A stretch of DNA of 64,000 bases, taken from the IMG/VR virus record IMGVR_UViG_3300039412_000320, one strand, 5' to 3'. Both the position numbers and the translations under genes were made by a program. A model generated the notes under the pieces. That model was not told where the DNA came from. It saw only the letters and a list, made by a program, of their open reading frames with translations, and did no database searches. Positions 17,357 to 55,674 of the stretch are shown piece after piece (positions within the stretch are counted from its first letter, which is position 1; every line of letters starts with the position of its first letter). The stretch comes from a virus.

Positions 17357-19843
17357 TTAGCTGGTAGCAGCTTTGGTAGCAGAGGCTTCCTCGTTAACAG
17401 CAACATCTTCGGCGACCAGTACACCCTCGGCAACACGGGTGAAACTAAGGTCTTCGTTGTCTTTATCCACTACGATGAGGTCTCCCATGTTGACTTGTTT
17501 GGTGTTAAGAAAACGGGAAAGCCGCTTCACTACCAGCTTCTCTATTATCCGCTTGAGAGGACGTGCCCCGTTCTTTAAGTCCGTGCCTTGGGTTATCAGC
17601 AGGTCTTTGGCGGCGGGGGTGAACTCCAAGACAAACTGCCGGAGGTCTCGCATCTTTAACACCCGGCTCTGCACCTGTTCGATTTCCAGTTCCACCACCT
17701 GTTTGAGTTGCTTCTTATCCAAGGAGTGAAACACCACTATCTCATCTATGCGGTTGAGGAACTCCGGGGTGAAGCGTTTCTTGGCGGCTTCCAGTCCTGC
17801 TGTCTCCACTTCTTTGTTGAACTCCTCACTGCTCTTTGTGGAAGACCCGGCAAACCCCAATCCACCTCGGGCGAGATATTGCATTTCTCGGGAGCCGAGA
17901 TTTCCCGTCATGATGATGAGGCATTTATCGAAGGTGCTTTGCTTGTTGTCACCCAAGGTAAGTGTGCCTTTGTCAAGTATTCCAAGTAACAAGTTCCACA
18001 GGGCGTCGTTAGATTTCTCAAACTCGTCAAAGAGTAAAAGTGTCAATTTTAACTCTTCGGTGTGGTGGGCATCCAGACTTTCCTGACGTAAGTAGGCTGG
18101 TGTATCCCGGTGTCCTAGATAACCCGGAGGAGAGTTATGTACTTGAAAACAAACCATATAGTATGATTTATCTTTTATGGATAAATCGTACACCATCCCC
18201 TTGTACAGTTCTCGTTCAATCTTTTTTATTCGGGTGTAGATATAGTCATCATCCACATAAGACATACGTTGAATTCCCGAATTTCCCAAGTTTAGAAGGT
18301 TGAGGCTTTTCCCGACTATGCGGAGGTTACTGGCAAACTGTGCTATTTGGTCTCCGGCTACGTATAGCCGGTAACGAGTGGATGCCTTATACCCCCGCTT
18401 ATCCTTCGGGTGTTGCTCCTGCATTTGGACTGCGTACCCCAAGTTATGAAGGAGGAATTGTATCTGGAAAGCCAAAGTTTCGGAGCTTGTGGCGTAGTCA
18501 ATGCGGCGGCAAACAGTCTTCCCCCCATCCCCCAAGATTGCCGTATCTAAAAAGTCGTAGGCTAGTTCTGGGCGTAAGTCGGAGACCCACGCTGGAAAAC
18601 GCTTGCGAAGAGCATGGTCACCAAAAAGGTCAGTCATCATAAGACTTATGGGTCGAGAGGAAAGGTATATCCGATAACTGCTCTTTCGCTCTTTCACCCT
18701 TATGTGAACGTCCCCAAACACCCTGTATATAAGCTCTCTCACCTCTTGAATGCACGGGCTGTCCTGCCCGTGTTTTCCGAATGTAAAATTGATGGATTTC
18801 TTGCTTTTGGAGTTTCCACCTTCGCTAACGTAAAATCCGGCCAAGCGCATAAAATCAGAGCTTACAGGTATAAAGCGGGGGAGCTTTTTTTTCGTCGCCG
18901 TTGACCAGATGTCTTTGTTATCAGACTTAAATCTGGGAAGGCCCCTAGTATATTCGGCTAAGTCGAGGGTTACGTCTTGGAGGGAAGATTTATGGCGAGG
19001 GTATACCACTACATCCCCCGCTTTAAGGTCTCCCGCCGCTATATCTTTAAGATTATTCGGTGAGCAAAACGTGCTGAGGAGCCGTCCCCTCTTTGTCGTC
19101 GCCCGGTTTTTCGTGCATGGGTCCTGAATGGCCCTTATTTCATGCCAAGGAGTGCATCCCACGGGTATGTTGGTGTTTCCAGCCGTTAGTTTTACTATTT
19201 CTCCGGCATATTCGTGGCTATGGGTTTCAATAACAGGGTGCGGTTCCCCATTTTCCCCACTTATGCTAGCGTTTTTTTCGACTTTTTCTATAGGTAGAAC
19301 AGTGCCTCCGGGAAACATCACCCGTGTTCCCGTAATGAAACACCCCACCAATTTGGAAATCTCGTGAGAGTGTTGAAATTCTGCACAATCAACTTTTTTG
19401 AGAGCCTTTTTGGTGCCGAAGAGAAGCTCCGCCATTACTTCAATGATGTAGGTCTTCCCGCAACCGGTGGGACCGAGGAATATTAGATTTCCGACAGGAT
19501 GGTCAGGCGGGGCTAAACCAGCACGGAAGGTTTCGTATGCGTCTACGAGTACCTCAATTGCCCGTGTCTGTCCGACGATAAGATGCTTTAGGCTGCTGGC
19601 AAGTTCTTCCTCAGCCTCGCTCTTGATGTTAGGGTCAAGCCGTTTGCACTGCTTTTTAGGCATTCTTGGCACTGCTTCTCGTCTAAGCATCAGGGTAATT
19701 TCCGGTTCCTCATTACATGATAAGTTCCGTAGTTCGTTTCCTATTTGATGCGTAAAATGCACGGGGTGCGCCCATACTGAAACGCACCCCGTTGACTTGC
19801 GGCAGAGAGAAGGGTGCTTTCTTCCTTTCCCTTCAGTTATCAA
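17357..19843 (-). CDS. Clp-family AAA+ ATPase (ClpA/B/C D2-like) interrupted by an intein; true start possibly the internal Met near 19690
   Basis: Walker A GPTGCGKT. SKLVG[intein]SPPGYLG corresponds to the conserved ClpB SKLIGAPPGYVGY. LLLFDEFEK, GARPLKRII ClpB-like C-terminus. Confidence 0.8.
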   Translation of the reverse strand: MITEGKGRKHPSLCRKSTGCVSVWAHPVHFTHQIGNELRNLSCNEEPEITLMLRREAVPRMPKKQCKRLDPNIKSEAEEELASSLKHLIVGQTRAIEVLVDAYETFRAGLAPPDHPVGNLIFLGPTGCGKTYIIEVMAELLFGTKKALKKVDCAEFQHSHEISKLVGCFITGTRVMFPGGTVLPIEKVEKNASISGENGEPHPVIETHSHEYAGEIVKLTAGNTNIPVGCTPWHEIRAIQDPCTKNRATTKRGRLLSTFCSPNNLKDIAAGDLKAGDVVVYPRHKSSLQDVTLDLAEYTRGLPRFKSDNKDIWSTATKKKLPRFIPVSSDFMRLAGFYVSEGGNSKSKKSINFTFGKHGQDSPCIQEVRELIYRVFGDVHIRVKERKSSYRIYLSSRPISLMMTDLFGDHALRKRFPAWVSDLRPELAYDFLDTAILGDGGKTVCRRIDYATSSETLAFQIQFLLHNLGYAVQMQEQHPKDKRGYKASTRYRLYVAGDQIAQFASNLRIVGKSLNLLNLGNSGIQRMSYVDDDYIYTRIKKIERELYKGMVYDLSIKDKSYYMVCFQVHNSPPGYLGHRDTPAYLRQESLDAHHTEELKLTLLLFDEFEKSNDALWNLLLGILDKGTLTLGDNKQSTFDKCLIIMTGNLGSREMQYLARGGLGFAGSSTKSSEEFNKEVETAGLEAAKKRFTPEFLNRIDEIVVFHSLDKKQLKQVVELEIEQVQSRVLKMRDLRQFVLEFTPAAKDLLITQGTDLKNGARPLKRIIEKLVVKRLSRFLNTKQVNMGDLIVVDKDNEDLSFTRVAEGVLVAEDVAVNEEASATKAATS
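18134..19342 (-). mobile_element. Intein (403 aa) with LAGLIDADG homing endonuclease inside the GAPPGYVG motif of the Clp ATPase
   Basis: Starts CFITG (Cys1) directly after LVG, ends VHN followed by S (+1 Ser). Internal LAGFYVSEGG and LDTAILGDGG LAGLIDADG motifs. Confidence 0.8.
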
Positions 19844-46327: not shown

Positions 46328-46638
46328 TGCTACCCGTACAAGTGTTCAGGGCAGAGGTAGTCCGGCTGGAGAACGAACTTCAATCAGCGAAGATACGGCT
46401 GGCGGAGGCGGAGTTGCGGTGCTGCCATGCGTGGAGTAAACCGGTGTATGACCCCATCATCCACGAAGCGTACCATATCGCTGGCGACCCGCCCGGCACC
46501 ATGGGGGTTGACCGGCAACTTCCCACGGATGTGCCCCGGCAGGAAATTCCCCGTTGGATAAGGACTTGTGGACGGTGCGGGGTGGTGGAGACAACGCAGC
46601 AAACCAAGGAAAATATCACAAAGGTACCGGTGTTCTAA
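46300..46638 (+). CDS. hypothetical protein
   Basis: ORF. Confidence 0.35.
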   Translation: MVSQEMGGVMLPVQVFRAEVVRLENELQSAKIRLAEAELRCCHAWSKPVYDPIIHEAYHIAGDPPGTMGVDRQLPTDVPRQEIPRWIRTCGRCGVVETTQQTKENITKVPVF

Positions 46639-47576
46639 TGGAATTCTACGGAAAGCTCAAACAAGCGTTGGTGGAGATTGGGGAGGTTGCCCCCAATAGC
46701 CTGATTCTCGCCTTCGCCTCCGGGAGTTGGCAGCATGGTGCCCGGATGGACGACAAGGCCGACCTTGATGTGTCCGGCGTGTTTGTGGGTCGCCCGGAAG
46801 AAGAACTCCAACTTGACAACGAGAACCCTCGTAAAATGGGTCATGCGAGCGCTAGCACGGCAGGAGACAAGCGCAAGAACACCAAGGCGGACGTTGACAT
46901 CAAAGCTTACTCCCTACGCCGTTGGGCGGGTCTGGCGCTTAAGGGCAATCCTTCGGCGCTTTCCTTCCTGTTTGTCCCGGACAGCATCAAGGACCTATCC
47001 TTGGAGCCAAAGGCACGCTGGTCCTGCCCCTATGATGCGCAGCAGTGTGAGTATCCAAGCTGCATAAGCGACCATGAGGGCTACCGGGACAGCACGTGCG
47101 TGAGGCGTAACCGGGAGGCGCATACAAACACGGTGTGGGACACCATGATTCTGCCCAACACCAATGACTTCCTGTCCGCACGGGCGGCGAAAGCCTTTAT
47201 CGGGTTGGCGGATAACCAGTTCCACCGGATGCTTGGGGAGGGCACGGGTAAGCACGGGACCCGGAAAGCCGAGAAGGAAGAGTACGGCTACGACCCCCAA
47301 GCGGCTATGCACATGATTCGAGGCATCCAAGAATGTCTTGAGCTTTTGCGGACCGGCAGGATGACTTTCCCCCGACCGGAGAAGACCCTCCTGCTTAACA
47401 TTCGCACCGGAAAACTTGGTCTAAAAGAAGTATTAGACCTATATGGGGTTTTACGGAATGAAGTACCCGAAGCAGAGAAGAACACCCCGCTTCCCCCGGA
47501 ATGTGACCGGGATAAGGTCAGCAAGCTCGTCGCCGGGGCCATCGTGAAACATTGGAAAGAGAGGAAGTGGCTATGA
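46638..47576 (+). CDS. Pol-beta-fold nucleotidyltransferase with helical C-terminal domain
   Basis: N-terminal GSWQHGARMDDKADLDVSGVFVG (GS..DxD). Confidence 0.5.
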   Translation: MEFYGKLKQALVEIGEVAPNSLILAFASGSWQHGARMDDKADLDVSGVFVGRPEEELQLDNENPRKMGHASASTAGDKRKNTKADVDIKAYSLRRWAGLALKGNPSALSFLFVPDSIKDLSLEPKARWSCPYDAQQCEYPSCISDHEGYRDSTCVRRNREAHTNTVWDTMILPNTNDFLSARAAKAFIGLADNQFHRMLGEGTGKHGTRKAEKEEYGYDPQAAMHMIRGIQECLELLRTGRMTFPRPEKTLLLNIRTGKLGLKEVLDLYGVLRNEVPEAEKNTPLPPECDRDKVSKLVAGAIVKHWKERKWL

Positions 47577-48303: not shown

Positions 48304-48640
48304 AGGAAGAAAACGAACTACCGACCCTATACTTGTAGGGGTAAAATTGAGGCGGGGAGCCGGACGATATTGTTACCCGGTCAGCCTCACAAGATTCCGG
48401 GCCGAAAGGCCCACCAGTTTGAGGGGGCGAAAGCCCCTACCATTTTACGCCCCGAAAGGGGCACCAGTTTTGGAGAGACATGCGAAATAGGAAACCAAAC
48501 CCGATGCAGTGGCAGCCTAAGCGGCATTTTAGCCGCCCAAGCTTCGGTGGGCTTCCGTTCGCAGGAGTCGCATAGCGAAAAAGCGAACAGAGTGCAAGGA
48601 TGCCCACCGAACTCAAGGTTCTGTGGGCTTTTTTATTTTG
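48296..48640 (+). ncRNA. Candidate ~340-nt ncRNA: three tandem GAAA-tetraloop hairpins each followed by ACCAGTTTT-like tails, ending in an intrinsic terminator
   Basis: gggccGAAAggccc-accagttt, ggggcGAAAgcccc-taccatttt, ccccGAAAgggg-caccagtttt. Bounded by the promoter at 48287 and the terminator at 48603-48638. No credible ORF. Confidence 0.45.
48603..48638 (+). terminator. Rho-independent terminator
   Basis: cccaccgaac-tcaag-gttctgtggg followed by cttttttatttt. Confidence 0.6.
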
Positions 48641-48990
48641 CACTTGCAGTGAATGAGTCGGTGACAACATACGCATAGAGGACGGAGGTTCTCTGGCTGA
48701 TTGTTAGCGTGGTTGTCATCAATGTGATGGATGTCAATCTGGCACGAGCATTTAGCAACAAAGCCGCATTCATCGCAGACTCTCGGGGGGTTTGACTTAT
48801 CTCGGTATGGATGAGAGGGGTAGTTACACCTTCCAGTCCAACGGGCTTGTGAGTTACGGCAAAGATACTTACCACCTTTGAGTCGCACTTTAACATCTCC
48901 ACAGGCGGCACAAAGCCCGGTTTTAGTTTCTTTGTTAACAAAAAGCATTCTATGAATCCACTGTCCCATATTAAAGACAGTGGAAGTCAT
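48613..48990 (-). CDS. HNH homing endonuclease
   Basis: CDECGF..IDIHHIDDNHANNQPENLRPLCVCCHRLIH. Confidence 0.6.
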   Translation of the reverse strand: MTSTVFNMGQWIHRMLFVNKETKTGLCAACGDVKVRLKGGKYLCRNSQARWTGRCNYPSHPYRDKSNPPRVCDECGFVAKCSCQIDIHHIDDNHANNQPENLRPLCVCCHRLIHCKCKIKKPTEP

Positions 48991-49024
48991 AAGATGGGTT
49001 TTTGGGTGGGTTTTTTGCGTTTAT

Positions 49025-49099
49025 GGTGACTGTAACTCAGTGGCAGAGTGCCTGACTGTGAATCAGGATACGGGGGTTCGATTCCCCTCAGTCACCCCA
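49025..49099 (+). tRNA. tRNA-His(GTG) with encoded G-1
   Basis: g-gtgactg/cagtcac, cctga-ctGTGaa-tcagg, ttcgatt T-loop, CCA encoded. Confidence 0.7.
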
Positions 49100-49104
49100 A
49101 GTTT

Positions 49105-49176
49105 GGTGAGTGAACCCCACAGGGTACTCGGTCTGGTCCGAGGGGGCGGGGGCAGCCCACTTCGTCATTCACCCCA
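49105..49176 (+). other. Unclassified CCA-ending structured element (9-bp terminal stem, no T-loop)
   Basis: ggtgagtga...tcattcacc-cca. Internal ctcgg-tctggt-ccgag and G-rich hairpins. Not a canonical tRNA. Confidence 0.3.
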
Positions 49177-49182
49177 ATATAT

Positions 49183-49260
49183 GGTCCCGTAGCTCAGCCC
49201 GTATAGAGCAACTCCCTCCGAAGGAGAAGGTCGTCGGTTAAAATCCGACCGGGACTTCCA
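49183..49260 (+). tRNA. tRNA-Arg(CCG)
   Basis: ggtcccg/cgggact, anticodon loop ctCCGaa, T-loop ttaaaat (atypical). Confidence 0.5.
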
Positions 49261-49266
49261 GATTAG

Positions 49267-49342
49267 GCCCCTGTAGCTCAGTGGACAGAGCGCCCGGTTT
49301 CGACCCGGATGGTCGCAGGTCCGAATCCTGTCAGGGGTTCCA
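49267..49342 (+). tRNA. tRNA-Arg(TCG)
   Basis: gcccctg/caggggt, cccgg-ttTCGac-ccgga, gcagg-tccgaat-cctgt. Confidence 0.5.
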
Positions 49343-49381
49343 AGATTTGAAAACAGTAATTGGACTTCGTAGTCCTTTAGT

Positions 49382-49798
49382 ATGAGGTCTAAGAACTGTT
49401 ACAAATGTGGTAAGGAAAAAGAGCACCGGTCAGCACCATACTGCCTCGAATGCCAGCGAGGCTACAATAAGCAAAACTACGAGAGGAATAAGACCTCGTA
49501 TGTTGAAAAAGCGAAACGGAATGGTGCAAGGTATAGGAAAGAAGCCATAGAGTGGGTCTTACAGTATTTGATGACTCACCCCTGTATCGACTGTGGAGAA
49601 TCTGACCCGATAGTCCTTGAGTTTGACCATCGGGAAGGAGAAAAGAAATTAGCAGCCGTTTCAACTTTAATGACACAAATGAAGGCATCATTAAAGACGA
49701 TAAAGGCTGAGATAGTTAAGTGCGACGTGCGATGCGCCAACTGTCACCGTCGTAAAACAGCGAAAGAAAGAGGTTGGTACAAGATTGAGGCCCCGTAG
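49382..49798 (+). CDS. HNH homing endonuclease inside the tRNA array
   Basis: CIDCGE..EFDHREGEKK..CANCHRRK. Stop codon abuts the start of tRNA-Arg(ACG). Confidence 0.6.
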   Translation: MRSKNCYKCGKEKEHRSAPYCLECQRGYNKQNYERNKTSYVEKAKRNGARYRKEAIEWVLQYLMTHPCIDCGESDPIVLEFDHREGEKKLAAVSTLMTQMKASLKTIKAEIVKCDVRCANCHRRKTAKERGWYKIEAP

Positions 49799-49868
49799 CT
49801 CAGCCCGGACTAGAGCAGCGGTCTACGAAACCGAAGGTCAGTGGGTTCAAATCCCCTCGGGGCTTCCA
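49789..49868 (+). tRNA. tRNA-Arg(ACG)
   Basis: ggccccg/cggggct, gcggt-ctACGaa-accga. D-arm near-identical to Arg(CCG). Confidence 0.55.
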
Positions 49869-50015
49869 AGATTGAGACCACGTGACGCACCCAAAGGGAT
49901 GGCGAGTCTGATGGGTTCGGTGGTAAGCAGGGCACCAGTTCTTCGGAACAGGCGAGGTCCCCAGCTATGCACTTCCCGCCCCTGCGGAGGGCGGTTGTCA
50001 CTGGTCACTGTTTGT

Positions 50016-50089
50016 TGGGATGTCATCCAATGGTAAGATGCCCGGCTGTTACCCGGAGAATGCAGGTTCGAGTCCTGCCGTCCCAGCCA
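50016..50089 (+). tRNA. tRNA-Asn(GTT), short D region
   Basis: tgggatg/cgtccca, anticodon loop ctGTTac, gcagg-ttcgagt-cctgc. Confidence 0.45.
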
Positions 50090-50254
50090 GTTTGAGGTCG
50101 TATGAGCGAGTGTCGCTGGTGTGATGAGGGTCGCCCTTGGTTGGCAGGTTGTGAGGGCAAACAGCACCAGCCGTTGTATGGTTCAGGCGAGCACTCAGGG
50201 ACGATGTGTCATAACAACTCGTCTATATATCCGCCTGAGAAGGAGACAGTTTCT

Positions 50255-50329
50255 TCTGGAGTAGCTCAACGGTAGAGCGTTCGGCTGTTAACCGAATGGT
50301 TGGGGGTTCGATTCCCTCCTCCAGAGCCA
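50255..50329 (+). tRNA. tRNA-Asn(GTT)
   Basis: tctggag/ctccaga (U1-A72), ttcgg-ctGTTaa-ccgaa, ggggg-ttcgatt-ccctc. Confidence 0.65.
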
Positions 50330-50335
50330 AAATAT

Positions 50336-50415
50336 GGAGTCGTGACGCAGATGTGGTTAAGCGTAGCCGCCTTTTAAGCGGACGGTCGTGGGCACCCAAT
50401 CCACCGGCTCCACCA
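50336..50415 (+). tRNA. tRNA-Lys(TTT) candidate with non-canonical T-loop
   Basis: ggagtcg/cggctcc, gccgc-ctTTTaa-gcgga; T-loop cacccaa lacks TTC. Confidence 0.35.
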
Positions 50416-50421
50416 AGATGT

Positions 50422-50498
50422 GCCGCCGTAACTCAACTGGACAGAGTACTCGGCTCTTGCCCGAGGAGTTGGAGGTTCGAGTCCTCTCGGCGGTACCA
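50422..50498 (+). tRNA. tRNA-Lys(CTT) (G37)
   Basis: gccgccg/cggcggt, ctcgg-ctCTTgc-ccgag, ggagg-ttcgagt-cctct. Confidence 0.5.
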
Positions 50499-50503
50499 AA
50501 TTT

Positions 50504-50579
50504 GGGTCGGTAGCTTAACTGGCAGAGCAGGGGCCTCTTAAGCCCAAGGTTGAGGGTTCGATTCCCTCCCGACCCACCA
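50504..50579 (+). tRNA. tRNA-Lys(CTT)
   Basis: gggtcgg/ccgaccc, ggggc-ctCTTaa-gccca, gaggg-ttcgatt-ccctc. Confidence 0.6.
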
Positions 50580-50654
50580 AGATGCTCTTGAGAGCGTATT
50601 ATAGGACTTAAGGTGCTCTCAAGATAATGCCGAGAAGTTTGAAAGTTTGGTTTT

Positions 50655-50731
50655 GCCTCTTTAGCTGATGCGGTGCATAGCGCCCGCCTGAAGAGCGGGA
50701 GAACAGAGTTCGACTCTCTGGGGAGGCACCA
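50655..50731 (+). tRNA. tRNA-Phe(GAA)
   Basis: gcctctt/gggaggc, cccgc-ctGAAga-gcggg, cagag-ttcgact-ctctg. Confidence 0.65.
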
Positions 50732-50737
50732 AGTTAT

Positions 50738-50811
50738 AGCGGAGTAGAGCAGTCAGGTAGCTCGGTTGGCTCATAACCAACAGGCCGCTGGTTCAAATCC
50801 AGCCTCCGCAA
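50738..50811 (+). tRNA. tRNA with CAT anticodon #1 (Met/fMet/Ile2), A1-A72 mismatch, CCA not encoded
   Basis: gagc/gctc D-stem, gttgg-ctCATaa-ccaac, gctgg-ttcaaat-ccagc. Confidence 0.55.
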
Positions 50812-50866
50812 CCTTGATACGCTACAGCGTATTAGCAACAGATATGCGGTGTAGCGTATGGTTTGA

Positions 50867-50943
50867 TGCGGGGTATAACTCTGGTGAGTTTCGGAGTCTC
50901 ATAAGCTCTGTAAAGGTGGGTTCAATTCCCATCCCCGCTACCA
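50867..50943 (+). tRNA. tRNA with CAT anticodon #2, U1-U72 mismatch
   Basis: ggagt-ctCATaa-gctct, gtggg-ttcaatt-cccat, acceptor gcgggg/ccccgc. Confidence 0.5.
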
Positions 50944-50947
50944 TCTT

Positions 50948-51024
50948 AGGGTTGTCTTGTAGCTCAGCGGAAGAGCGACCGGGGTACCGGGAGGTCGGTG
51001 GTTCGATTCCACCCATGCAACTCA
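50948..51024 (+). pseudogene. Degenerate tRNA-like element (good D- and T-arms, no acceptor pairing, aberrant anticodon region with palindromic ccggGGTACCgg)
   Basis: gctc-agcggaa-gagc and ggtgg-ttcgatt-ccacc present, but the 5' and 3' ends do not pair. Confidence 0.35.
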
Positions 51025-51140
51025 AGCCGTACGTGAGTGCCCCTTAAAAGGCCATTGTTTGGGCGGCGTAATTGTCGGGTAACATACTCATGGTGTGGCG
51101 CAGCGCAACCATCATGGCTCCCAAACACCACGTACGTTCT

Positions 51141-51215
51141 GGCTCGCTAGTTCAGTGGCAGAACGCCGCTCTCATAAGGCGGATGTCACAGGTTCGATTC
51201 CTGTGCGAGCTACCA
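51141..51215 (+). tRNA. tRNA with CAT anticodon #3
   Basis: ggctcgc/gcgagct, ccgct-ctCATaa-ggcgg, acagg-ttcgatt-cctgt, CCA encoded. Confidence 0.65.
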
Positions 51216-51371
51216 AGTTATGGCGGAAGCATACTGGACTGGCAAGGCTAACCGGTTTGAGTATGTGGGCTGAGGCCCGAGAGGTGAAAACCTCCCATTG
51301 TCCGTCACCGTTTGGAGGTTGACGAGTACTGGCTCTGATTAGCTGGGGGAGTACTGCCAAACCTCCATTAT

Positions 51372-51446
51372 CAGGTCCTAGCATAATGGTAATGCCCTAG
51401 TCTGGGGGACTAGTGATTGGCAGTTCGACTCTGCCGGACCTGACCA
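51372..51446 (+). tRNA. tRNA-Pro(GGG)
   Basis: C1-G72 acceptor caggtcc/ggacctg, ctagt-ctGGGgg-actag, gcat/atgc D-stem. Confidence 0.7.
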
Positions 51447-51483
51447 AAGTTTACGGGCTGTAGCTGAACGGCCTAACTTGTGC

Positions 51484-51558
51484 CGGGGCGTAGGGTAACG
51501 GTAACCCACTTGCTTTGGGAGCAAGTCGTTGGAGGTTCAAATCCTCTCGCCCCGACCA
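51484..51558 (+). tRNA. tRNA-Pro(TGG)
   Basis: cggggcg/cgccccg, cttgc-ttTGGga-gcaag, ggagg-ttcaaat-cctct. Confidence 0.7.
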
Positions 51559-51602
51559 AAAATATCACTCCGACCAATCTTCTGACTTCAGTATCTATTA
51601 GT

Positions 51603-52193
51603 ATGAAGAGTCAAGAAGTTGGTGGAGTGAATGTAAGACTTCCACACATCTGCAAAAAATGTGGGAAGGCATTAACTGAGGACGGTAAGAACTTCCCAAC
51701 ACGTTGGTCTAATGGGAATAAGTATTACCGATTTCTATGCCGTATTTGCTTTAATAAGCATAACAAACGTTGGAAACCTCGACATGGAATGACCGAGGGG
51801 GTTTACGAGCGAAGGAAACAGACTCTAAGCACCCAAAGGTATAAAGGCGAAGCAAGGCATGTTACAAACGACTGCAAGAGTTGGGATAAACGCCATGGGT
51901 TTGCCTGCGACCTTGACCGGAACTACGTAGCTGCTCTTATATCCACTGGCTGCCGATACTGTGGAGTAACCCAAAGAGAACTACGCATTGGGTTGGACCG
52001 ATTAGATAACATGCGGGGTCATTTGAAAAGTAACGTAATTCCCTGTTGCACAAGATGTAACATTGTTCGAGGAAATATGCCCTACAAAGCGTGGTTACTA
52101 ATCGCTGATACAATGCGAAAAGTTAGGGAGCTTGGGTTATTTGCGGATTGGGTTCCGGGAAATAAAAGCAAAGATTATTCCGGGGTCGTCTGA
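51603..52193 (+). CDS. HNH-family homing endonuclease inside the tRNA array
   Basis: CRYCGVTQRELRIGLDRLDNMRGHLKSNVIPCCTRCNIVRGNM. The longer ORF from 51480 overlaps tRNA-Pro, so the start was moved to MKSQEV. Confidence 0.55.
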   Translation: MKSQEVGGVNVRLPHICKKCGKALTEDGKNFPTRWSNGNKYYRFLCRICFNKHNKRWKPRHGMTEGVYERRKQTLSTQRYKGEARHVTNDCKSWDKRHGFACDLDRNYVAALISTGCRYCGVTQRELRIGLDRLDNMRGHLKSNVIPCCTRCNIVRGNMPYKAWLLIADTMRKVRELGLFADWVPGNKSKDYSGVV

Positions 52194-52203
52194 TTTAAAT
52201 TTT

Positions 52204-52282
52204 CGGTGTGTAGCTCAGCCCGGTTTAGAGCACTCCGTTCGGGGCGGAGGGGTCGGGAGTTCAAATCTCCCCACGCCGACCA
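52204..52282 (+). tRNA. tRNA-Pro(CGG)
   Basis: cggtgtg/cacgccg, ctccg-ttCGGgg-cggag, gggag-ttcaaat-ctccc. Confidence 0.7.
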
Positions 52283-52334
52283 AGATTGATTTATACGTCA
52301 AGTTTACCCCTCTGGGGCTAAAAGTTGACGTAAA

Positions 52335-52409
52335 TAGCAAGATATTCCAGAGTCCTCTAACGGTAGGAGAACCGGCTCTGACCCGGTTAATGAGAGGTTC
52401 GAGTCCTCC
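52335..52409 (+). tRNA. tRNA-Gln(CTG) candidate (U1-A72)
   Basis: accgg-ctCTGac-ccggt perfect anticodon arm, ctct/ggag D-stem. The acceptor has two mismatches. Confidence 0.45.
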
Positions 52410-52460
52410 CCTCGGAGCCAAGCTAGCCCGGAAAATGTGGGTTCGAGTCCCACCGGATAA
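52410..52460 (+). pseudogene. tRNA 3'-half fragment (T-arm plus 3' acceptor only)
   Basis: gtggg-ttcgagt-cccac-cggataa with no 5' half upstream. Confidence 0.4.
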
Positions 52461-52519
52461 TCGCATGGAGTAGCCTTCCCGTCAGGCAGAACGCCCCCAG
52501 CGACCCGTCATTCAATGGT

Positions 52520-52655
52520 AGGATACCGGGGATTGATTCAGGGAGAAGGTTGCGGGTTCGAGTCCCGTCGCCCCGCCATGCGGGGCGTAGCTCAATGGTA
52601 GAGCGTCTCCCATGATGCAGCCGGAAAAACGGGGTTCGAGTCCCCGTAGGACATG
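52520..52655 (+). pseudogene. Cluster of tRNA fragments / degenerate tRNA
   Basis: T-arm gcggg-ttcgagt-cccgt + cgccccg, then ccatg, then cggggcg-ta-gctc-aatggta-gagc with no pairing anticodon arm, then another T-arm cgggg-ttcgagt-ccccg. Repeated catggta motifs. Confidence 0.4.
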
Positions 52656-52749
52656 GTACAGCGTAGCCTCATGGTAGCTGTGACCAAGATAACCATGGTA
52701 CTCTTGGTCTTGACCTTCGTTTATTTGGATAAGACACCGGCGTGAGTTT

Positions 52750-52839
52750 AGGGGTGACGGGCAATCTGGTTCGGCCCAGCGGTCTCCAAAACCGTCTTCC
52801 TTCGGGATACTGGGGGTTCAAATCCCTCCACCCCTGCCA
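52750..52839 (+). tRNA. Class II (long variable arm) tRNA with CCA anticodon
   Basis: aggggtg/cacccct, gcggt-ctCCAaa-accgt, 16-nt variable arm cttccttcgggatact, ggggg-ttcaaat-ccctc, CCA encoded. Confidence 0.5.
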
Positions 52840-52914
52840 AGATTCTAATGTAAATTTTTGGTGCAGATAGAGTCTCCAAATCTACGCTATGCAACTCATA
52901 TATTGGAGGATTGT

Positions 52915-53259
52915 ATGGCGACAGAAGCTTGGAAAACATCTCATCAAGAAGAAATGAAAGCATACAGGAGAAAACATTATCAAAATCACAAAGAGCCATA
53001 TCTTATCCGAGCAAAGAACCAAAGGAAAGAAATTAGAGATTGGTTCAAGGAGTTCAAACGCTCTCTAAAATGTGCTCGTTGCCCGGAAAATCATCCTGCA
53101 TGTTTAGATTTTCATCATAGAGATTCAAGCAAAAAAGACATGTCAATAAGGCAAGCTGTGAACCAAGGTTGGGGAAAGAAACGAATCCTTGCTGAGATAA
53201 GAAAATGCGAAATACTATGCTCTAACTGTCACAGGAAGGAGCACCATCCTGAAATTTAA
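52915..53259 (+). CDS. HNH homing endonuclease
   Basis: CLDFHHRDSSKKDMS..LCSNCHRKEH. SD ggagga before the ATG at 52915. Confidence 0.6.
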   Translation: MATEAWKTSHQEEMKAYRRKHYQNHKEPYLIRAKNQRKEIRDWFKEFKRSLKCARCPENHPACLDFHHRDSSKKDMSIRQAVNQGWGKKRILAEIRKCEILCSNCHRKEHHPEI

Positions 53260-53269
53260 TTATTCGTTT

Positions 53270-53880
53270 GTTTCTCAATCTCTGTGGTATTACCAAGAAT
53301 GGCGTGCAAGGTCCCGTAGGGTCGGCAAGACTGATGGGAACGGTTGTCGTGGCAGAAATCGGGATACCGTGCCTGCACAAGCGGCTTCCGGGCGACGAGG
53401 GGGACCGGTCATTAACCCCGTAGAAAGCGAAGCCAAACCGCCAGTACGCTGGCTGCACGCCGTTGGGTTTAAGTTGGTGCTCCTGACCGACCTAAGTCTC
53501 TGGTGAGTTGACATAACCGGGGGCGATGTCTTAAGGGCGTGGTCACAGGGGCGCTGTTCGGGCGGGGTGAGAGCGTTAGGACAACGCAGTGGGCCTCGGG
53601 GTGAGACACCATAAGAAACCCGACCACATCAACCCGTATGGTGTACGGCAATGAGACCGGCCAATTCGATGGATATGAACCTGAGAGAAGACCGGTTACA
53701 CCCCGCCCAAACCCTAAAAGCTTGACTCGCCGCCTAGTCCTATGGGCGGATACCGGAGTGCGAAGAGCGATGGACGGCTATAGGGGTCGTGCGCAGGCTT
53801 ACCGGCAATTAGCCATCGATCACATTCGGTGTGGCAACGAGCGAGGATTAACGGTTTTCCGAATCTTAGATAAGGAGGCT
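53270..53880 (+). other. ~600-nt GC-rich non-coding region (candidate structured RNA), unclassified
   Basis: Only short overlapping low-complexity ORFs on both strands. The strong SD for the HNH gene lies at its 3' end. Confidence 0.3.
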
Positions 53881-53882
53881 CT

Positions 53883-54434
53883 ATGGGATACGCTGACGTA
53901 CTTGTACTAGACATGAACTGGATACCCGTGGGCTTCATGGGCTGGCAGAACGCCGTCAAGCTCTGGTTCGAGGACCGTGCCAAGATTGTCAAGGAGGACG
54001 AGGGCGGGAAGGTCCTGCACTCACCGTCCTTTGAAATGGGCATGCCAAGGGTGATAGTCGTTCGCAACGCTTGGCATCGCCGTAAGAAGCAGTCCGTCCC
54101 CTGCACCCGGCGCAACCTGTTAGTGCGTGACAATGCAACATGCCAGTACTGCGGCAAGGTGGTCCACACCTCGGAATACACGATTGACCACGTCATCCCG
54201 CTTTGCCAGAAGGGCAAGTCCGACTGGGACAACCTTGCCATCGCCTGTATGCCGTGCAACAAGGAAAAGGCCGGACGTACCCCGGCGCAGGCGGGCATGA
54301 CCTTGCTCAGCAAGCCCTATACGCCGAAGCCCACGGACCCCCGCTTCAACTTCAAGCTGCATATCAGCAAGATAAGGAACGAGTGGAAAGATTACGCACC
54401 GTACCTATACTGGAATGTTGTACTTGATAAATGA
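53883..54434 (+). CDS. HNH endonuclease
   Basis: CQYCGKVVHTSEYTIDHVIPLCQKGKSDWDNLAIACMPCNKEK. SD aaggagg. Confidence 0.65.
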   Translation: MGYADVLVLDMNWIPVGFMGWQNAVKLWFEDRAKIVKEDEGGKVLHSPSFEMGMPRVIVVRNAWHRRKKQSVPCTRRNLLVRDNATCQYCGKVVHTSEYTIDHVIPLCQKGKSDWDNLAIACMPCNKEKAGRTPAQAGMTLLSKPYTPKPTDPRFNFKLHISKIRNEWKDYAPYLYWNVVLDK

Positions 54435-54467: not shown

Positions 54468-55265
54468 GTGGAGCCATATGGGGAAGTATACATTATCGTA
54501 AACCAAGTCAACAACAAGGTATATATCGGGCAAACCATAAGAACCCTGCACGAGCGATGGCTGGCTCATTGTAGGAGAGCCAAAGCGGGTGGGACAAATT
54601 GTGCATACTTCTATAATGCCATCCGAAAATATGGAGAAGGTAGCTTCAAAGCCTATCGTATAAATGTTGCCTTCTCCAAAGAAGAATTGGATACCCTTGA
54701 GGTCTCCTATATTGAAAAGTTTAAGGCGTGCGACCCTGAATATGGATACAACTCAACTCTTGGAGGCGGAGGGGTAGTTGCGAATGAGGCTACTCGTCAA
54801 AAATTCAAAGAGGCGAACAAAGGCGAAAGAAATCCAATGTTTGGTAAGCATTGTTCAGAGCAGACTAGACAAAGGATGAGTGCCTCCCAAAGGGGACACT
54901 CAGTCCCAGAAAGCACTAGAAAGGCTGTTGCAGAATCAAACAGGAGAAGAGCTGGAAAACCACAAGCTCCCCACAAGTCTGGCTGGAAACACTCCGATAC
55001 CAGTAAGCAAAAAATGCGGGAAGCATTAAAAGGAAGAACCTCGGCTTGGAATAAAGGCAAAAAAATGCCAGAAGGCTTTGGTGAAAAAATAGCCAAGGCA
55101 AAGCGTGGGAAACCACGACCGGTGCATGTAATAGCAGCCTTGAGGGAAGCTAATAGAAAAAGACCACCTGTGCGCTGGTTATGTAAAGATGGCGTAGCAA
55201 TCAAAATTGCGGCATCCGAAGTTATTAACCGCCTCTGTGATGGTTGGAGGCTAGGAAGGAAATAA
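54468..55265 (+). CDS. GIY-YIG homing endonuclease with NUMOD-like repeats
   Basis: EVYIIVNQVNNKVYIGQTIRTLHERWLAH. Repeated R(N/H)P..GK and SGWKHSDTSKQKMREA motifs. Upstream ataaatgaact motif. Confidence 0.7.
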   Translation: MEPYGEVYIIVNQVNNKVYIGQTIRTLHERWLAHCRRAKAGGTNCAYFYNAIRKYGEGSFKAYRINVAFSKEELDTLEVSYIEKFKACDPEYGYNSTLGGGGVVANEATRQKFKEANKGERNPMFGKHCSEQTRQRMSASQRGHSVPESTRKAVAESNRRRAGKPQAPHKSGWKHSDTSKQKMREALKGRTSAWNKGKKMPEGFGEKIAKAKRGKPRPVHVIAALREANRKRPPVRWLCKDGVAIKIAASEVINRLCDGWRLGRK

Positions 55266-55674
55266 ACAAGTTTACGCCCCCGTGAGCGGAGATGGACATC
55301 GCAACAGTTTCCTAAACTGTCTATGCCGAAAGGCATCGCAGGTTCGAGTCCTGCCGGGGGTACCAAATTTACGGGGGAATCGTCTAACGCAAAAGGCACC
55401 CGTCTTCTAAACGGGCAATCCGGGTTGGACTCCCGGTTCCCCTTCCAATTCCCAAGGAACACCATATGCTGCTCGATTGCGATAAGCGAAACGTGAGGGT
55501 CGTAGCCTCCTTGAACGATGCCAAGGGGCACTCGGAGAACCTCGGGCGTGTCGTATGGGCGCAGGTAGACGACCGCCCGGAGTGGCTGTACAAGGTCTAC
55601 CCTGGAGGGCGGGTAATCCAGTACCCCGTGGCGAAGACCTGGACGAAGGGTCGCCCGGAGGGATTGGAGACCGC

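Follow-up and report, generated by a model that had tools for sequence, protein, structure and literature searches.

Y RNAs of the YrlA type were described as circularly permuted tRNAs whose acceptor stem is closed, and dimeric tRNA transcripts were proposed as their source (bioRxiv 10.1101/312249; PMC4201824). Tandem YrlA/YrlB pairs can derive from one processed precursor, RNase P cuts the Mycobacterium smegmatis YrlA, which has a 7-bp acceptor-like stem, and the authors who described the family noted that tandem tRNAs yield false-positive matches to their model (PMC4201824). Jumbo phages are known to encode tRNA-repair gene sets, and some of them also encode Ro60 (TROVE) together with a tRNA-like partner (PMC7824862). 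In the Thermus phage phiLo, Ro60 binds the host PNPase and two phage Y-like RNAs (PMC12135203).

Here, an uncultured jumbo phage was analysed in a window of 64 kb, meaning the whole stretch of DNA that was studied, with a focus on its second tRNA array. A Pfam search of the window places a gene for an RNA-repair nucleotidyltransferase of the RlaP family 1.4 kb upstream of the array, and relatives were retrieved via homologues of this gene, which served as the anchor. The related contigs measure approximately 238–317 kb, and a Thg1-like protein and cREC are encoded in relatives. The homing-endonuclease genes and most of the array are ordinary. Upstream of the tRNA-Trp gene, however, lies an element of three tRNA-like modules, A to C, with a permuted order (Table 1).

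Table 1. Features of the array, its surroundings and its downstream continuation
Feature	Position	Strand	Support
RlaP-family RNA-repair nucleotidyltransferase	46554..47576	+	Pfam RlaP 1.7e-13; phrog_388 4.6e-39
Further HNH-like ORF directly upstream of array	48613..48990	-	phrog_7545 4.3e-5; Pfam HNH_3 7.6e-4, below its cut-off
tRNA-His(GTG)	49026-49099	+	ARAGORN; Rfam tRNA (59-70 bits for His and two Arg)
tRNA-Arg(CCG)	49183-49260	+	ARAGORN; Rfam tRNA
tRNA-Arg(TCG)	49267-49342	+	ARAGORN; Rfam tRNA
HNH1, free-standing HNH homing-endonuclease gene	49382..49798	+	phrog_2255 HNH endonuclease 2.4e-29
tRNA-Arg(ACG)	49789-49868	+	ARAGORN; Rfam
tRNA-Asn(GTT), two copies	50016-50089, 50255-50329	+	ARAGORN; Rfam
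Degenerate tRNA-Lys(TTT)	50336-50412	+	Rfam only, 35.8 bits
tRNA-Lys(CTT), two copies	50422-50498, 50504-50579	+	ARAGORN; Rfam
tRNA-Phe	50655-50731	+	ARAGORN; Rfam
Three CAT tRNAs	50738-50813, 50867-50943, 51141-51215	+	ARAGORN; Rfam
Anticodon-less tRNA-like element, normal order	50949..51023	+	Rfam tRNA 32.8 bits (50953-51020)
tRNA-Pro(GGG)	51372-51446	+	ARAGORN; Rfam
tRNA-Pro(TGG)	51484-51558	+	ARAGORN; Rfam
HNH2, endonuclease VII / HNH-type homing-endonuclease gene	51603..52193	+	phrog_1035 endonuclease VII 7.7e-13; phrog_2214 HNH 1.8e-4
tRNA-Pro(CGG)	52204-52282	+	ARAGORN; Rfam
tRNA-Gln(CTG), chimeric	52346-52420	+	ARAGORN; Rfam just 33.3 bits
Module A	52427..52530	+	R1 model 44.9 bits
Module B	52541..52611	+	Rfam YrlA 41.9 bits; R1 48.2 bits
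Module C	52620..52741	+	R1 60.5 bits; z -2.35
tRNA-Trp(CCA), long variable arm, 90 nt	52750..52839	+	ARAGORN; Rfam 43.6 bits
HNH3, free-standing HNH homing-endonuclease gene	52915..53259	+	phrog_3106 5.1e-23
HNH gene (downstream continuation)	53883-54434	+	Pfam HNH 1.4e-13
GIY-YIG/NUMOD3 homing endonuclease (downstream continuation)	54468-55265	+	Pfam GIY-YIG 8e-10, NUMOD3 8e-18
Long-variable-arm tRNA-Arg(CCT) (downstream continuation)	55276-55365	+	ARAGORN; Rfam
tRNA-Arg(TCT) (downstream continuation)	55373-55447	+	ARAGORN; Rfam

The tRNA Genes and Their Order

ARAGORN and Rfam bear out the tRNA order of the original prediction: His, Arg(CCG), Arg(TCG), Arg(ACG), two Asn, two Lys(CTT), Phe, three CAT tRNAs, Pro(GGG), Pro(TGG), Pro(CGG), Gln(CTG) and a 90-nt tRNA with a CCA anticodon. 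The amino-acid order is retained in phages in which the neighbouring RlaP is just ~60% identical, and neighbouring isoacceptors are 59–71% identical, with 59% identity between the two Asn copies and 60% between the two Lys(CTT) copies. As the order is kept at this distance and copies with the same anticodon are only ~60% alike, the order His, Arg, Asn, Lys, Phe, Met, Pro, Gln and, further on, Trp and Arg is ancestral and common to the phage family, and the grouping by amino acid, likewise ancestral, is a weak sign of recent local duplication.

The tRNA with the CCA anticodon, predicted as class II, is a tRNA-Trp; it is conserved, its variable arm is long, and it has A1-U72, G73 and an encoded CCA. 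Orthologues occupy the equivalent array position in the related loci L054, L058 and L059, and 100 ARAGORN calls (52 unique sequences, 83–91 nt) of such long-arm tRNA-Trp were obtained from viral and metagenome contigs. In L001, the closest relative, the tRNA-Trp genes are class I.

Some members of the array are degenerate. The Lys(TTT) gene has a non-canonical T loop (CACCCAA), and the acceptor stem of tRNA-Gln contains the mismatches A4.C69 and A6.C67. In the anticodon-less element following the second CAT tRNA, at which ARAGORN calls no tRNA, an extended acceptor-like stem (GGGUUG.../...CAACUC) would enclose a D arm, AGGUC and a T arm in normal order, while a stem capped by a tetraloop (CCGG-GGUA-CCGG) replaces the anticodon arm. 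Its computed fold (z -0.3) shows hairpins for the D and T arms with the capped stem between them, and a search of the relatives gave no clear homologue.

Homing-Endonuclease Genes and Mosaicism

PHROG profiles support the three ORFs that had been claimed as HNH genes; Pfam gives no HNH match for any of the three at E≤0.01. As claimed, HNH1 covers the first 10 nt of tRNA-Arg(ACG) and HNH2 ends 10 nt upstream of tRNA-Pro(CGG). HNH3 has a ribosome-binding site (GGAGG) 5 nt upstream and is 33% identical to HNH1. Six of the eleven homing-endonuclease-like ORFs of the window are found within 48.6–55.3 kb, which is above chance (Poisson p ~0.001).

All three genes are polymorphic between the window and L001. 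HNH1 is missing from the equivalent site, where a distant paralogue follows Arg(ACG); HNH2 is absent, Pro(TGG) being followed directly by Pro(CGG); and HNH3 is absent, with homology resuming at 53284, just past the gene. The block from tRNA-His to Arg(TCG) is 98% identical to L001, homology breaks exactly at HNH1 (49347/49382) and starts again at 52394, inside tRNA-Gln. Mosaic breakpoints inside tRNA-Gln and inside tRNA-Trp lie on either side of the permuted element.

Presence in some relatives but not in others and a location at homology breakpoints are usual for free-standing homing endonucleases, as known from SegB of T4/T6, and agree with what was published on SegB and further phage nucleases (PMC13096335; PMC10448857). 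By analogy with T4/T6 SegB, free-standing HNH and GIY-YIG genes may have invaded intergenic sites of the array, and genomes free of the endonuclease would be cut in co-infection and restored by recombinational repair, resulting in a mosaic array. The predicted link of endonucleases to remodelling of the array is supported, but not its extension to the T-arm, acceptor and D-arm pieces downstream of tRNA-Gln as debris. This extension, by which endonuclease cuts and careless repair broke up tRNA genes and left these pieces behind without function, would fit with the density of homing-endonuclease genes, the breakpoints on both sides, the degenerate tRNAs close by (Lys(TTT), the chimeric Gln and the 50949-51023 element) and a hairpin in module B that resembles a junction of two tRNAs. 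It is nevertheless very improbable in view of the structure and conservation of the element.

Three Circularly Permuted tRNA-Like Modules

The T and D arms between 52420 and 52740 are real, yet none of them is orphan: each T arm has its counterpart D arm downstream, with an acceptor-like hairpin between them and a closing helix around them. The supposed fragments are parts of intact structures whose fold had been misread, and complete modules account for every one of them. It is well supported that 52427-52741 comprises three complete, tandem, circularly permuted tRNA-like modules without anticodon. In tRNA terms, each opens with the 3' strand of an anticodon stem and finishes with the 5' strand that closes it; between the two come a variable loop of 5 nt, the T arm, an acceptor-like stem made into a closed hairpin by a loop or an inserted domain, then U8 and N9, the D arm and N26. 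The modules have neither an anticodon loop nor a free CCA end.

Module A begins with CCCGG (equivalent to 39-43), AAAAU and the T arm GUGGG-UUCGAGU-CCCAC, continues with an acceptor-like stem (CGG/AUAA bulge/UCGC ... GCGA/CCG) with a 35-nt insert, and ends with UC, the D arm AUUC-AAUGGUA-GGAU, A and CCGGG (equivalent to 27-31). Its MFE z-score of +0.6 provides no thermodynamic signal; orthologues with compensatory changes are present in L001, L054 and L058. Module B consists of GGGAGA, AGGUU, the T arm GCGGG-UUCGAGU-CCCGU, the hairpin CGCCCCGC-CAU-GCGGGGCG, UA, the D arm GCUC-AAUGGUA-GAGC, G and UCUCCC, and its MFE fold is exactly the permuted fold (z -3.2, ensemble frequency 0.6). In the L058 orthologue the closing stem reads GCCAG/CUGGC, the T stem GGAGG/CCUCC and the acceptor-like stem CUCUCCC/GGGAGUG. 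Module C comprises GCCGG, AAAAA, the T arm CGGGG-UUCGAGU-CCCCG, U, the acceptor-like stem AGGACA/UGACCU, UC, the D arm GUUU-AUUUGGAUA-AGAC, A and CCGGC; two hairpins, H1 (52658-52681) and H2 (52682-52709), are inserted into its acceptor-like stem. Several closing stems are palindromes of the CCGG type, so that alternative pairing between modules is possible.

Conservation and Covariation

Identity to L001 is 97.9% within the element and 86–88% (~87%) in the flanking coding DNA, which makes this stretch of ~330 nt the best-conserved DNA of the region. The five differences comprise two in loops, one repair of an A.A mismatch of module C to U-A, one change from A-U to G.U and one broken terminal pair. 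The element lies between tRNA-Gln and tRNA-Trp also in L001, L054 and L058/L059, and directly upstream of the Trp genes in the group L094-L158, with one to four modules among the relatives. In relatives with a flanking protein of ~60% identity, compensatory changes preserve the helices.

In a MAFFT alignment of module C from seven loci, 93.1% of the cells are paired compared to 33–47% in slid controls, and ten pairs changed on both sides compared to zero to five; none of 500 shuffles reached the observed value. A curated alignment of eleven modules, which was registered by hand and leans towards the structure, yields 98.2% paired cells compared to 39–50%, with both sides changed in 18 of its 20 pairs. 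Position 15:48 of the Levitt pair covaries (U:A six, A:U two and C:G two times), but a control slid by +2 scores equally well. Drawing on only approximately eight distinct orthologous sequences from four to five lineages, covariation thus shows the permuted secondary structure. The covariation of all helices, the conservation and the retained array position argue against debris. Comparison with related uncultured jumbo phages alters the reading of the tRNA order, the HNH genes and these pieces.

Our own covariance model R1, the training set of which included these modules among others, scores them well above the rest of the window (≤22 bits). As R1, like the YrlA model (PMC4201824), also gives false positives on tandem tRNAs, with up to ~45 bits for ordinary isoacceptor junctions in other loci, the modules might be mis-read tandem tRNAs. 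Permuted tRNA genes with closed acceptor stem, known from algae and one archaeon as cited in bioRxiv 10.1101/312249, raise the related idea of permuted pre-tRNAs that mature into functional tRNAs, like those of Cyanidioschyzon. Both are hardly credible for this element. The acceptor-like strands pair at five to six of six positions in the permuted register versus one to five of six in the normal register, in which anticodon and acceptor stems do not form, and an anticodon loop is absent in either register. Modules B and C of L058 are joined by just 2 nt, which leaves no room for an anticodon loop there. ARAGORN calls no tRNA in 52427-52741, and Rfam tRNA matches only partially, with 26.3 bits under the 29-bit cut-off. 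With respect to processing, neither a bulge-helix-bulge motif nor a splicing endonuclease is known from bacteria or phages.

Relation to YrlA and to tRNA Processing

The permuted topology of the modules is that of the tRNA-like domain in YrlA Y RNAs, which they resemble. YrlA is the sole significant non-tRNA Rfam match; it aligns to module B with the T arm, hairpin and D arm within the closing stem, the D stem being YrlA consensus and the T stem near-consensus. Together with the tandem YrlA/YrlB pairs and the Ro60 systems of jumbo phages and phiLo mentioned above, this suggests that the modules might be true Y RNAs that act as tethers or gates for a Ro60 (Rsr) encoded elsewhere in the 240–320-kb phage genome or by the host and bring in nucleases of the PNPase type in the manner of the RYPER complex. 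We regard this as unlikely, though not negligible. The match (E 5e-8) is far below the gathering score of 69, a Ro60-binding 5'/3' stem is not evident, and the GNCGAA motif is absent, the latter being a weak test as phage YrlA matches linked to Ro60 also do without the strict motif. Neither the window nor, in relatives, the 10 kb on either side of the anchoring RlaP gene yielded a Ro60/TROVE gene, whereas genuine phage YrlA matches lie within 300 nt of Ro60, and among the at least 46 TROVE-bearing viral contigs listed there is no member of this phage family.

The modules might alternatively serve as entry sites for RNase P or RNase Z or as exonuclease blocks, shaping maturation of the polycistronic tRNA precursor, perhaps chiefly for the downstream long-arm tRNA-Trp, and play no role in trans. 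Without exception they sit within the array and on the same strand as the tRNAs, immediately before tRNA-Trp, and the acceptor-like stems of modules B and A (~7–8 bp) are similar in length to that of the YrlA cut by RNase P. However, the ordinary tRNAs of the array, 5–90 nt apart, need no such helpers, three to four copies and the conserved inserted hairpins of module C exceed what punctuation requires, and L001 retains the element despite its class I tRNA-Trp genes, making such a role improbable.

Possible Function and Origin

The reading that we favour with some reserve is that the element encodes three intact, conserved RNAs that copy the tRNA body in permuted order and act as protein-binding mimics. 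The modules would be co-transcribed with the tRNAs on the + strand and fold into L-shaped tRNA look-alikes via the elbow of T loop and D loop and the 15:48 Levitt pair, being unable to decode or to become charged. Like the tRNA-like domain of YrlA, such mimics might bind proteins recognising the elbow or the acceptor helix of a tRNA. Candidate partners are processing or modification enzymes, a Ro60/PNPase-type partner, phage tRNA-repair enzymes and host tRNA-targeting effectors, and the varying number of tandem copies would fit a dosage or sponge role.

The modules probably arose from tandem tRNA duplicates. An origin by tandem duplication is plausible from the hairpin of module B, which reads acceptor 3' strand, CCA, UG and acceptor 5' strand like the junction of two identical tRNAs, and the D arm of modules A and C is of the Gln/Glu type.

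Three circularly permuted tRNA-like modules inside the tRNA array

Between tRNA-Gln(CTG) and the last tRNA gene of the array, the original prediction had described several orphan tRNA fragments. However, these pieces belong to three complete circularly permuted modules, A, B and C, which together form an element at 52427-52741. The only significant Rfam match in this region apart from tRNA is to YrlA (Y RNA-like), and in its alignment a T arm is followed by a perfect 8-bp hairpin, CGCCCCGC-CAU-GCGGGGCG, and by a D arm, the whole being closed by GGGAGA and UCUCCC. If the flanks are read in the same way as this match, all base-paired pieces of the element are accounted for. In each module 5 nt lead from the 5' closing strand to the T stem, as the equivalent of the variable loop, 2 nt (U and N) precede the D stem and 1 nt separates the D stem from the 3' closing strand, a spacing that reproduces tRNA geometry exactly. 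The acceptor-like stem carries an insert in modules A and C, consisting of two hairpins in the latter. The minimum free energy (MFE) structure of module B is exactly the permuted cloverleaf (z -3.2), and the z values of modules C and A are -2.35 and +0.6, respectively. A covariance model of the permuted modules (R1), built from 11 modules with the three of the window among them, scored these three with 60.5, 48.2 and 44.9 bits and the rest of the window with at most 22 bits.

A canonical tRNA was rejected, as ARAGORN returned no tRNA call on 52421-52749, the Rfam tRNA model gave only a partial match on the element below the cut-off of 29 bits, and in the normal register the stems do not form and there is no anticodon loop. 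The acceptor strands of successive modules pair at 1-5 of 6 positions in the normal register versus 5-6 of 6 in the permuted one, and the linkers of 2-16 nt between modules show no anticodon-arm pairing. The normal tRNA register is excluded by these predicted pairings, and we assign a next to negligible probability to tandem tRNAs or permuted pre-tRNAs, even though the authors of the YrlA family pointed out that tandem tRNAs imitate the T/spacer/D pattern (PMC4201824). The closing stems are often CCGG-type palindromes and other pairings between modules are possible; the loci with a single module, together with U-A/A-U substitutions in the closing stem of module C, favor independent modules. 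A scan for promoters and terminators remained at background level.

Features of the array and of other parts of the window
Feature	Position	Strand	Evidence or remark
GNAT protein	2076-3116	+	weak cREC match
2025-aa ORF	6857-12934	+	sole match a nucleotidyltransferase domain
ClpB-like AAA+ protein	17357-19843	-	split by intein
First tRNA array	29133-30692	+	ARAGORN; Tyr, Leu x4, Ser x3
HNH ORF in first array	29459-30085		phrog_10822, 5.9e-46
810-aa ORF	30761-33193	-	MVP_shoulder 8e-22, Vault_3 2e-10
Array under study	49026-52839	+	ARAGORN
Island to L001, His to Arg TCG			98% identity
HNH1	49382-49798		PHROG 2.4e-29
tRNA-Lys(TTT)	50336-50412		Rfam 35.8 bits; odd T loop CACCCAA
Island to L001, two Lys CTT			98.6% identity
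Anticodon-less tRNA-like element	50949-51023		normal order
Weak tRNA-like match	50953-51020		Rfam 32.8 bits
HNH2	51603-52193		PHROG 7.7e-13 (endonuclease VII)
tRNA-Gln(CTG)	52346-52420		Rfam 33.3 bits
Island to L001	52394-52794		95.8% identity
Module A	52427-52530
YrlA match	52529-52627		Rfam 41.9 bits, E 5e-8
Module B	52541-52611
Partial tRNA match	52588-52646		Rfam 26.3 bits
Module C	52620-52741
Long-arm tRNA-Trp(CCA)	52750-52839	+	ARAGORN
HNH3	52915-53259		PHROG 5.1e-23
Island to L001	53284-53878		97.3% identity
Small ORF	53638-53910
Two further Arg tRNAs	55276-55447	+	ARAGORN

Genomic context, conservation and covariation

The majority of the large ORFs in the window have no family match, and the matched ones point to a tailed phage of large size with many genes for RNA repair and nucleotide metabolism; among them are genes for a collagen-like tail fibre, an intein-containing ClpB-like ATPase, ThyX, a dCMP deaminase and a NUDIX protein, and the RNA-repair nucleotidyltransferase RlaP is encoded 1.4 kb upstream of the array. 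A search with RlaP retrieved two contigs from IMG/VR, 317 and 238 kb long (protein identity 93%); their 21-kb loci, L001 and L002, do not differ from one another. More distant homologues (59-61% identity) led to the metagenome contigs L054-L059, which show the same synteny of Thg1-like gene, RlaP, epimerase, cREC (cyclic-phosphate processing receiver), tRNA array and HNH gene. Megablast of 48500-53500 against GenBank phages gave no match and tblastn with RlaP gave at most 30% identity; as there is thus no close cultured phage, the annotation cannot be read from one.

The intein of the ClpB-like protein carries a LAGLIDADG domain. The 810-aa ORF with vault-protein matches adjoins the first tRNA array, and a homologue of a vault protein beside tRNAs is unusual in a phage.

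With 97.9% identity to L001, the element lies well over the coding background of 86-88%. Five of the seven alignment differences to L001 fall within the element: two lie in loops, one turns an A.A mismatch into a U-A pair in the acceptor-like stem of module C, one changes A-U to G.U and one opens a terminal pair. The element recurs at the same array position in L054 and L058 with strongly diverged sequence, and the number of modules is two in L054, four in L058 and one in a further group of loci (L094, L106, L118 and L138). The modules are conserved, they keep a fixed place in the array and they vary in copy number. When module C from seven loci was aligned with MAFFT and scored with the structure from the window, 93.1% of the cells were paired versus 33-47% if the partners are slid, and 10 pairs are altered on both sides versus 0-5 in the slid controls; 0 of 500 shuffles reach the observed value. 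In an alignment of 11 modules with trimmed inserts, which was registered by hand and therefore leans towards the structure, 98.2% versus 39-50% are paired and 18 of 20 pairs are altered on both sides; the MAFFT result is the more independent of the two. The tertiary pair 15:48 covaries as U:A, A:U and C:G, one slid control being equally good. The permuted, anticodon-less tRNA-body fold is well supported. That the element is debris of break and repair, as had been suggested from its fragmentary appearance, is highly improbable in view of its identity to L001, the covariation of its helices and the array position kept in the relatives. In phage arrays, 'pseudo-tRNA fragments' ought not to be written off as debris.

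Further RNAs were seen in the relatives. Permuted modules are also present at other places of their arrays: at 18863-18940 L001 has one with a T loop of 8 nt and a D loop of 17 nt (R1 33.9 bits), and L118 has a compact one without acceptor-like stem at 1934-1994 (R1 40.6 bits). Moreover, an RNA of about 205 nt is found in L001 (18652-18855) and in loci of the L094, L106, L118 and L138 type, the window having none. This RNA combines an acceptor stem of 7 bp (GCCCGUG/CACGGGC) with A73, CCA and a T arm of canonical form, the place of the D and anticodon arms is taken by a large insert, and it received no call from ARAGORN or Rfam.

Relation to YrlA RNAs and Ro60

YrlA is described as a circularly permuted tRNA with a closed acceptor stem and tRNA tertiary contacts, for which an origin from dimeric tRNA transcripts was proposed (bioRxiv 10.1101/312249; PMC4201824). 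The modules show the same topology in the Rfam alignment, the MFE fold and the covariation: a T arm, a closed acceptor-like stem of variable length and a D arm follow each other, and the equivalent of the anticodon stem closes the structure. The elbow nucleotides, U8, A14 and the covarying 15:48 pair are common to both, as are the lack of an anticodon loop and of a free CCA and the occurrence in tandem copies, and YrlA is likewise known from phages. Unlike YrlA, three to four modules are joined by linkers of 8-16 nt, they lie inside a tRNA array and not beside rsr, module C has two conserved hairpins within its acceptor-like stem, and the modules have no recognizable Ro60-binding stem or motif.

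Whether the modules are specifically Ro60-bound Y RNAs has to be judged against this background. They share the YrlA topology, and module B has the YrlA consensus D stem and a T stem close to the consensus; however, the Rfam family (RF02553) has a gathering score of 69 bits, and the window and L058 stay below it with 41.9 and 38.8 bits, respectively. The putative Ro60-binding site GNCGAAN0-1G near the 5' end (PMC4201824) was not found by a regular expression in 52421-52749 or in L001, a weak test of low power since Ro60-linked phage YrlAs lack the strict motif as well: it is absent from seven phage YrlA-like matches, at least three of them with a confirmed adjacent Ro60 gene. Linkage was defined as a Ro60 (TROVE) gene within about 4 kb on the same strand. 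Pfam found no TROVE domain in 40 ORFs of the window, the gene tables of the relatives list no TROVE ORF within 10 kb on each side of the anchoring RlaP gene, and tblastn with four Ro60-type proteins from beside phage YrlA matches (three confirmed TROVE) found none in the window or the loci of the family. A scan of the viral collection with a Ro60 alignment yielded at least 46 contigs, with none of this phage family among the matches listed. As positive controls, the viral contigs L004, L015 and L034 carry phage YrlA-like RNAs at most 300 nt from TROVE/Ro60 genes. The 240-320-kb genome may carry a Ro60 gene in another part, or the host may encode one. Taken together, Ro60-bound Y RNAs are an unlikely reading of the modules. 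We consider the element a novel form of YrlA-type tRNA mimic: a tandem that lies within a tRNA array and shows no linkage to Ro60.

In L009 the ORF beside a YrlA-like match encodes a DUF2828/DUF7788 protein, which is not a recognized TROVE protein.

Other RNA classes considered

In Cyanidioschyzon merolae and Thermofilum, permuted tRNA genes keep the anticodon loop together with a bulge-helix-bulge motif, and they give rise to working tRNAs via a circular intermediate. The modules resemble them in their reversed halves, the 3' half lying upstream of the 5' half, in the closed acceptor hairpin and in RNA ends that pair as the anticodon-stem region; unlike them, the modules possess neither an anticodon loop nor such a processing motif for regenerating a tRNA. 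A tmRNA, including the two-piece permuted type, was rejected: ARAGORN called no tmRNA, the Rfam tmRNA matches cover the T loop only (11-13 bits), the acceptor-like stems as read from the sequence have no G3.U70, and there is no tag frame. Two-piece tmRNA, group I intron and attP-type tRNA fragment have no support from Rfam or ARAGORN and were rejected also because selection acts on RNA helices formed from distant segments. The tRNA cluster of phage T4 encodes the small stable RNAs species 1 and 2 (rnaC/rnaD), which have no known function and are processed together with the tRNAs; like these, the modules are structured non-tRNA RNAs encoded among phage tRNAs. To our knowledge, species 1 and 2 are not described as permuted tRNA bodies.

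A wider spread of tandem modules was rejected. When R1 was run on about 100 other loci, many matches of 26-45 bits proved to be junctions between tandem isoacceptors that share anticodon stems (by reading of the sequences, those in L077/L113/L125, L149, L120 and L071/L076/L088), and such ordinary junctions reach up to about 45 bits. The descriptor matches in L012 and L015 are tandem tRNAs, too. A pattern specific for module A found only the two known relatives and chance matches in viral contigs, and a generic scan for T arm, N15-30 and D arm returned mostly ordinary tandem tRNAs and a minority of real YrlA RNAs beside Ro60. YrlA and tRNA covariance models confuse tandem tRNAs and permuted mimics in both directions.

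Possible role and origin of the modules

Many anti-phage systems attack tRNAs. We regard it as fairly probable, by analogy, that the modules are functional tRNA-mimic RNAs that would act through protein binding. They would be co-transcribed with the array tRNAs, would fold into an L shape and might be recognized by proteins specific for the tRNA elbow or the acceptor helix. Since neither decoding nor charging is possible for the modules, a tRNA mimic serving as decoy or scaffold is the most economical role, and it fits the investment of this phage family in tRNA damage and repair, i.e., RlaP, the Thg1-like protein, cREC and more than 25 tRNAs; such a damage-and-repair conflict was described for phages (PMC7824862; PMC12776372). 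As a sponge, the modules might soak up host immune effectors recognizing the tRNA elbow or acceptor helix; as a scaffold, they might be presented to the phage's own repair enzymes of the RlaP/Thg1 type. A role as mere processing or stability punctuation is distinctly improbable.

The permuted modules probably originated from a tandem tRNA duplication. The hairpin of module B has the order acceptor 3' strand, CCA, UG and acceptor 5' strand, and modules A and C share a D arm, UC-GUCU...GGAC, with the neighboring tRNA-Gln of the relatives. Local duplication, which had been proposed for the whole array, is thus retained as the probable origin of the permuted element only and not for the grouping of isoacceptors. 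It is conceivable, if still rather doubtful, that the modules represent a Ro60-independent YrlA-like lineage which arose from tandem duplicates of Gln/Glu type in the array and is used as sponge or cofactor in an arms race. If such a lineage exists, it would represent a surviving intermediate in the proposed descent of Y RNAs from dimeric tRNAs, and a sponge or cofactor would constitute a new class of RNA-based anti-defence element. What is new is the presence of conserved, covarying, circularly permuted tRNA look-alikes inside a tRNA array with no Ro60 gene nearby. The YrlA type of tRNA mimic is thereby no longer confined to rsr loci, the hypothesis of a descent of Y RNAs from dimeric tRNAs gains a concrete case, and attention is drawn to phage RNAs of an unexplored class, which could bind tRNA-recognizing enzymes or defence nucleases.

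Homing endonucleases and mosaicism of the array

The three predicted HNH ORFs between the tRNAs were confirmed by matches to PHROG HNH or endonuclease VII families, the Pfam HNH models being silent on them at E<=0.01, and HNH1 overlaps the start of tRNA-Arg(ACG) by 10 nt. At least 11 homing-endonuclease-like ORFs are found in the 64-kb window, six of them within 48.6-55.3 kb (Poisson p ~0.001). Compared with L001, only islands of the array align and the stretches between them are non-homologous. Homology ends at 49347, 35 nt 5' of HNH1, and restarts 25 nt 3' of HNH3; HNH2 and HNH3 are missing from L001, which has a distant paralogue of HNH1 at another site, 3' of Arg ACG. The three ORFs thus combine a nuclease profile with presence/absence polymorphism at homologous sites and a location at exchange boundaries. 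Moreover, the breakpoint at 52394 falls inside tRNA-Gln(CTG), and this low-scoring gene looks recombinant, with A4.C69 and A6.C67 mismatches between the 5' and 3' acceptor strands.

In the tRNA cluster of T4/T6, SegB drives preferential inheritance and segmental amplification of the tRNA region (PMC13096335); an influence of homing endonucleases on the inheritance and amplification of tRNA genes is also attributed to PMC2330249 (as cited in PMC13096335), and nuclease genes mark the boundaries of exchange between phages (PMC10448857). Like SegB and the HNH genes of T5-like phages, the nuclease genes of the window are intergenic between tRNAs, variably present and located at exchange boundaries. 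Unlike SegB, they belong to HNH, endonuclease VII-like and, in one case, GIY-YIG families with predicted cleavage activity, and no tandem amplification is seen in the window. The presence/absence pattern and the breakpoints correspond to the documented behavior of free-standing phage homing endonucleases. Endonuclease-linked remodelling of the array, as originally proposed, agrees with the coincidence of breakpoints and endonuclease genes and is known biology; an HNH-studded array is an ordinary, already explained feature of large phages. As a whole, the original prediction was largely accurate in what it observed, and half of its interpretation holds, namely mosaicism linked to HNH genes and not the debris.

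The last of the islands, mostly non-coding and located between HNH3 and the next HNH gene, is conserved far above the coding background; Rfam found nothing in it, and it may hold a small gene (the small ORF in the table) or another RNA.

tRNA gene content and order

According to ARAGORN the window has 27 tRNA genes, each of them on the + strand, and an Rfam scan with permissive thresholds added three weak tRNA-like matches. Both together confirmed the predicted tRNA order. The succession (His) Arg, Asn, Lys, Phe, Met, Pro, Gln is also present in L054 and L058/L059, where beyond Gln 342-502 nt without tRNA, a long-arm Trp(CCA) and Arg CCT/TCT follow, and the order is ancestral. The grouping by amino acid had been taken as a mark of local duplication. 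However, neighboring isoacceptors of the window are not close copies, with identities of only 71% for Arg CCG and Arg ACG, 61-63% among the Pro genes, 60% for the Lys CTT pair and 59% for the Asn pair, and the grouping is therefore no sign of a recent event of this kind.

The first array contains exactly the three canonical class II families, Tyr, Leu and Ser, and the reading frame of its HNH ORF passes through tRNA-Leu(CAG). The anticodon-less element at 50949-51023 has CCGG-GGUA-CCGG in place of the anticodon arm and an extended acceptor-like stem; alignment to weak tRNA matches at similar positions in the relatives revealed no convincing homology.

A tRNA-Trp with a long variable arm

In bacteria, a long variable arm (class II) is found in tRNAs for Leu, Ser, Tyr and Sec, and we know of no tRNA-Trp in cellular organisms that is not class I. 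The last tRNA of the array, predicted to be a class II CCA tRNA, has a CCA anticodon, G73, A1-U72, G2-C71 and G3-C70. CCA anticodon, G73 and A1-U72 are what we take to be the bacterial Trp identity set, and by these elements the gene is assigned as a putative tRNA-Trp. Its variable arm of 16 nt with the stem UCC-UUCG-GGA lies within our definition of a long arm (at least 12 nt with a stem); it is like bacterial class II tRNAs in this stem-forming arm and unlike them in its Trp identity. Orthologues in L054 and L058 occupy the same position and have covarying variable-arm stems. L001 has two class I tRNA-Trp genes instead, and the arm is thus gained or lost through mosaic exchange.

A pattern demanding a long arm found 20 viral and 76 metagenome stretches, and ARAGORN called all 100 copies tRNA-Trp, corresponding to 52 unique sequences of 83-91 nt. 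Over 20 diverse sequences the cloverleaf covaries, with A1-U72 present in 15; RNAalifold recovered the cloverleaf of these 20 and not the variable arm, because the arm lengths differ. The long-arm tRNA-Trp has a wide distribution among contigs of phages and metagenomes. No description of such a tRNA turned up in a search of the literature, and its unusual architecture is worth a separate study. Long arms were also observed in other families that are normally class I, i.e., an Arg(CCT) tRNA of the window (55276-55365, 90 nt) and an Asn(GTT) tRNA of L058 (7931-8017, 87 nt).
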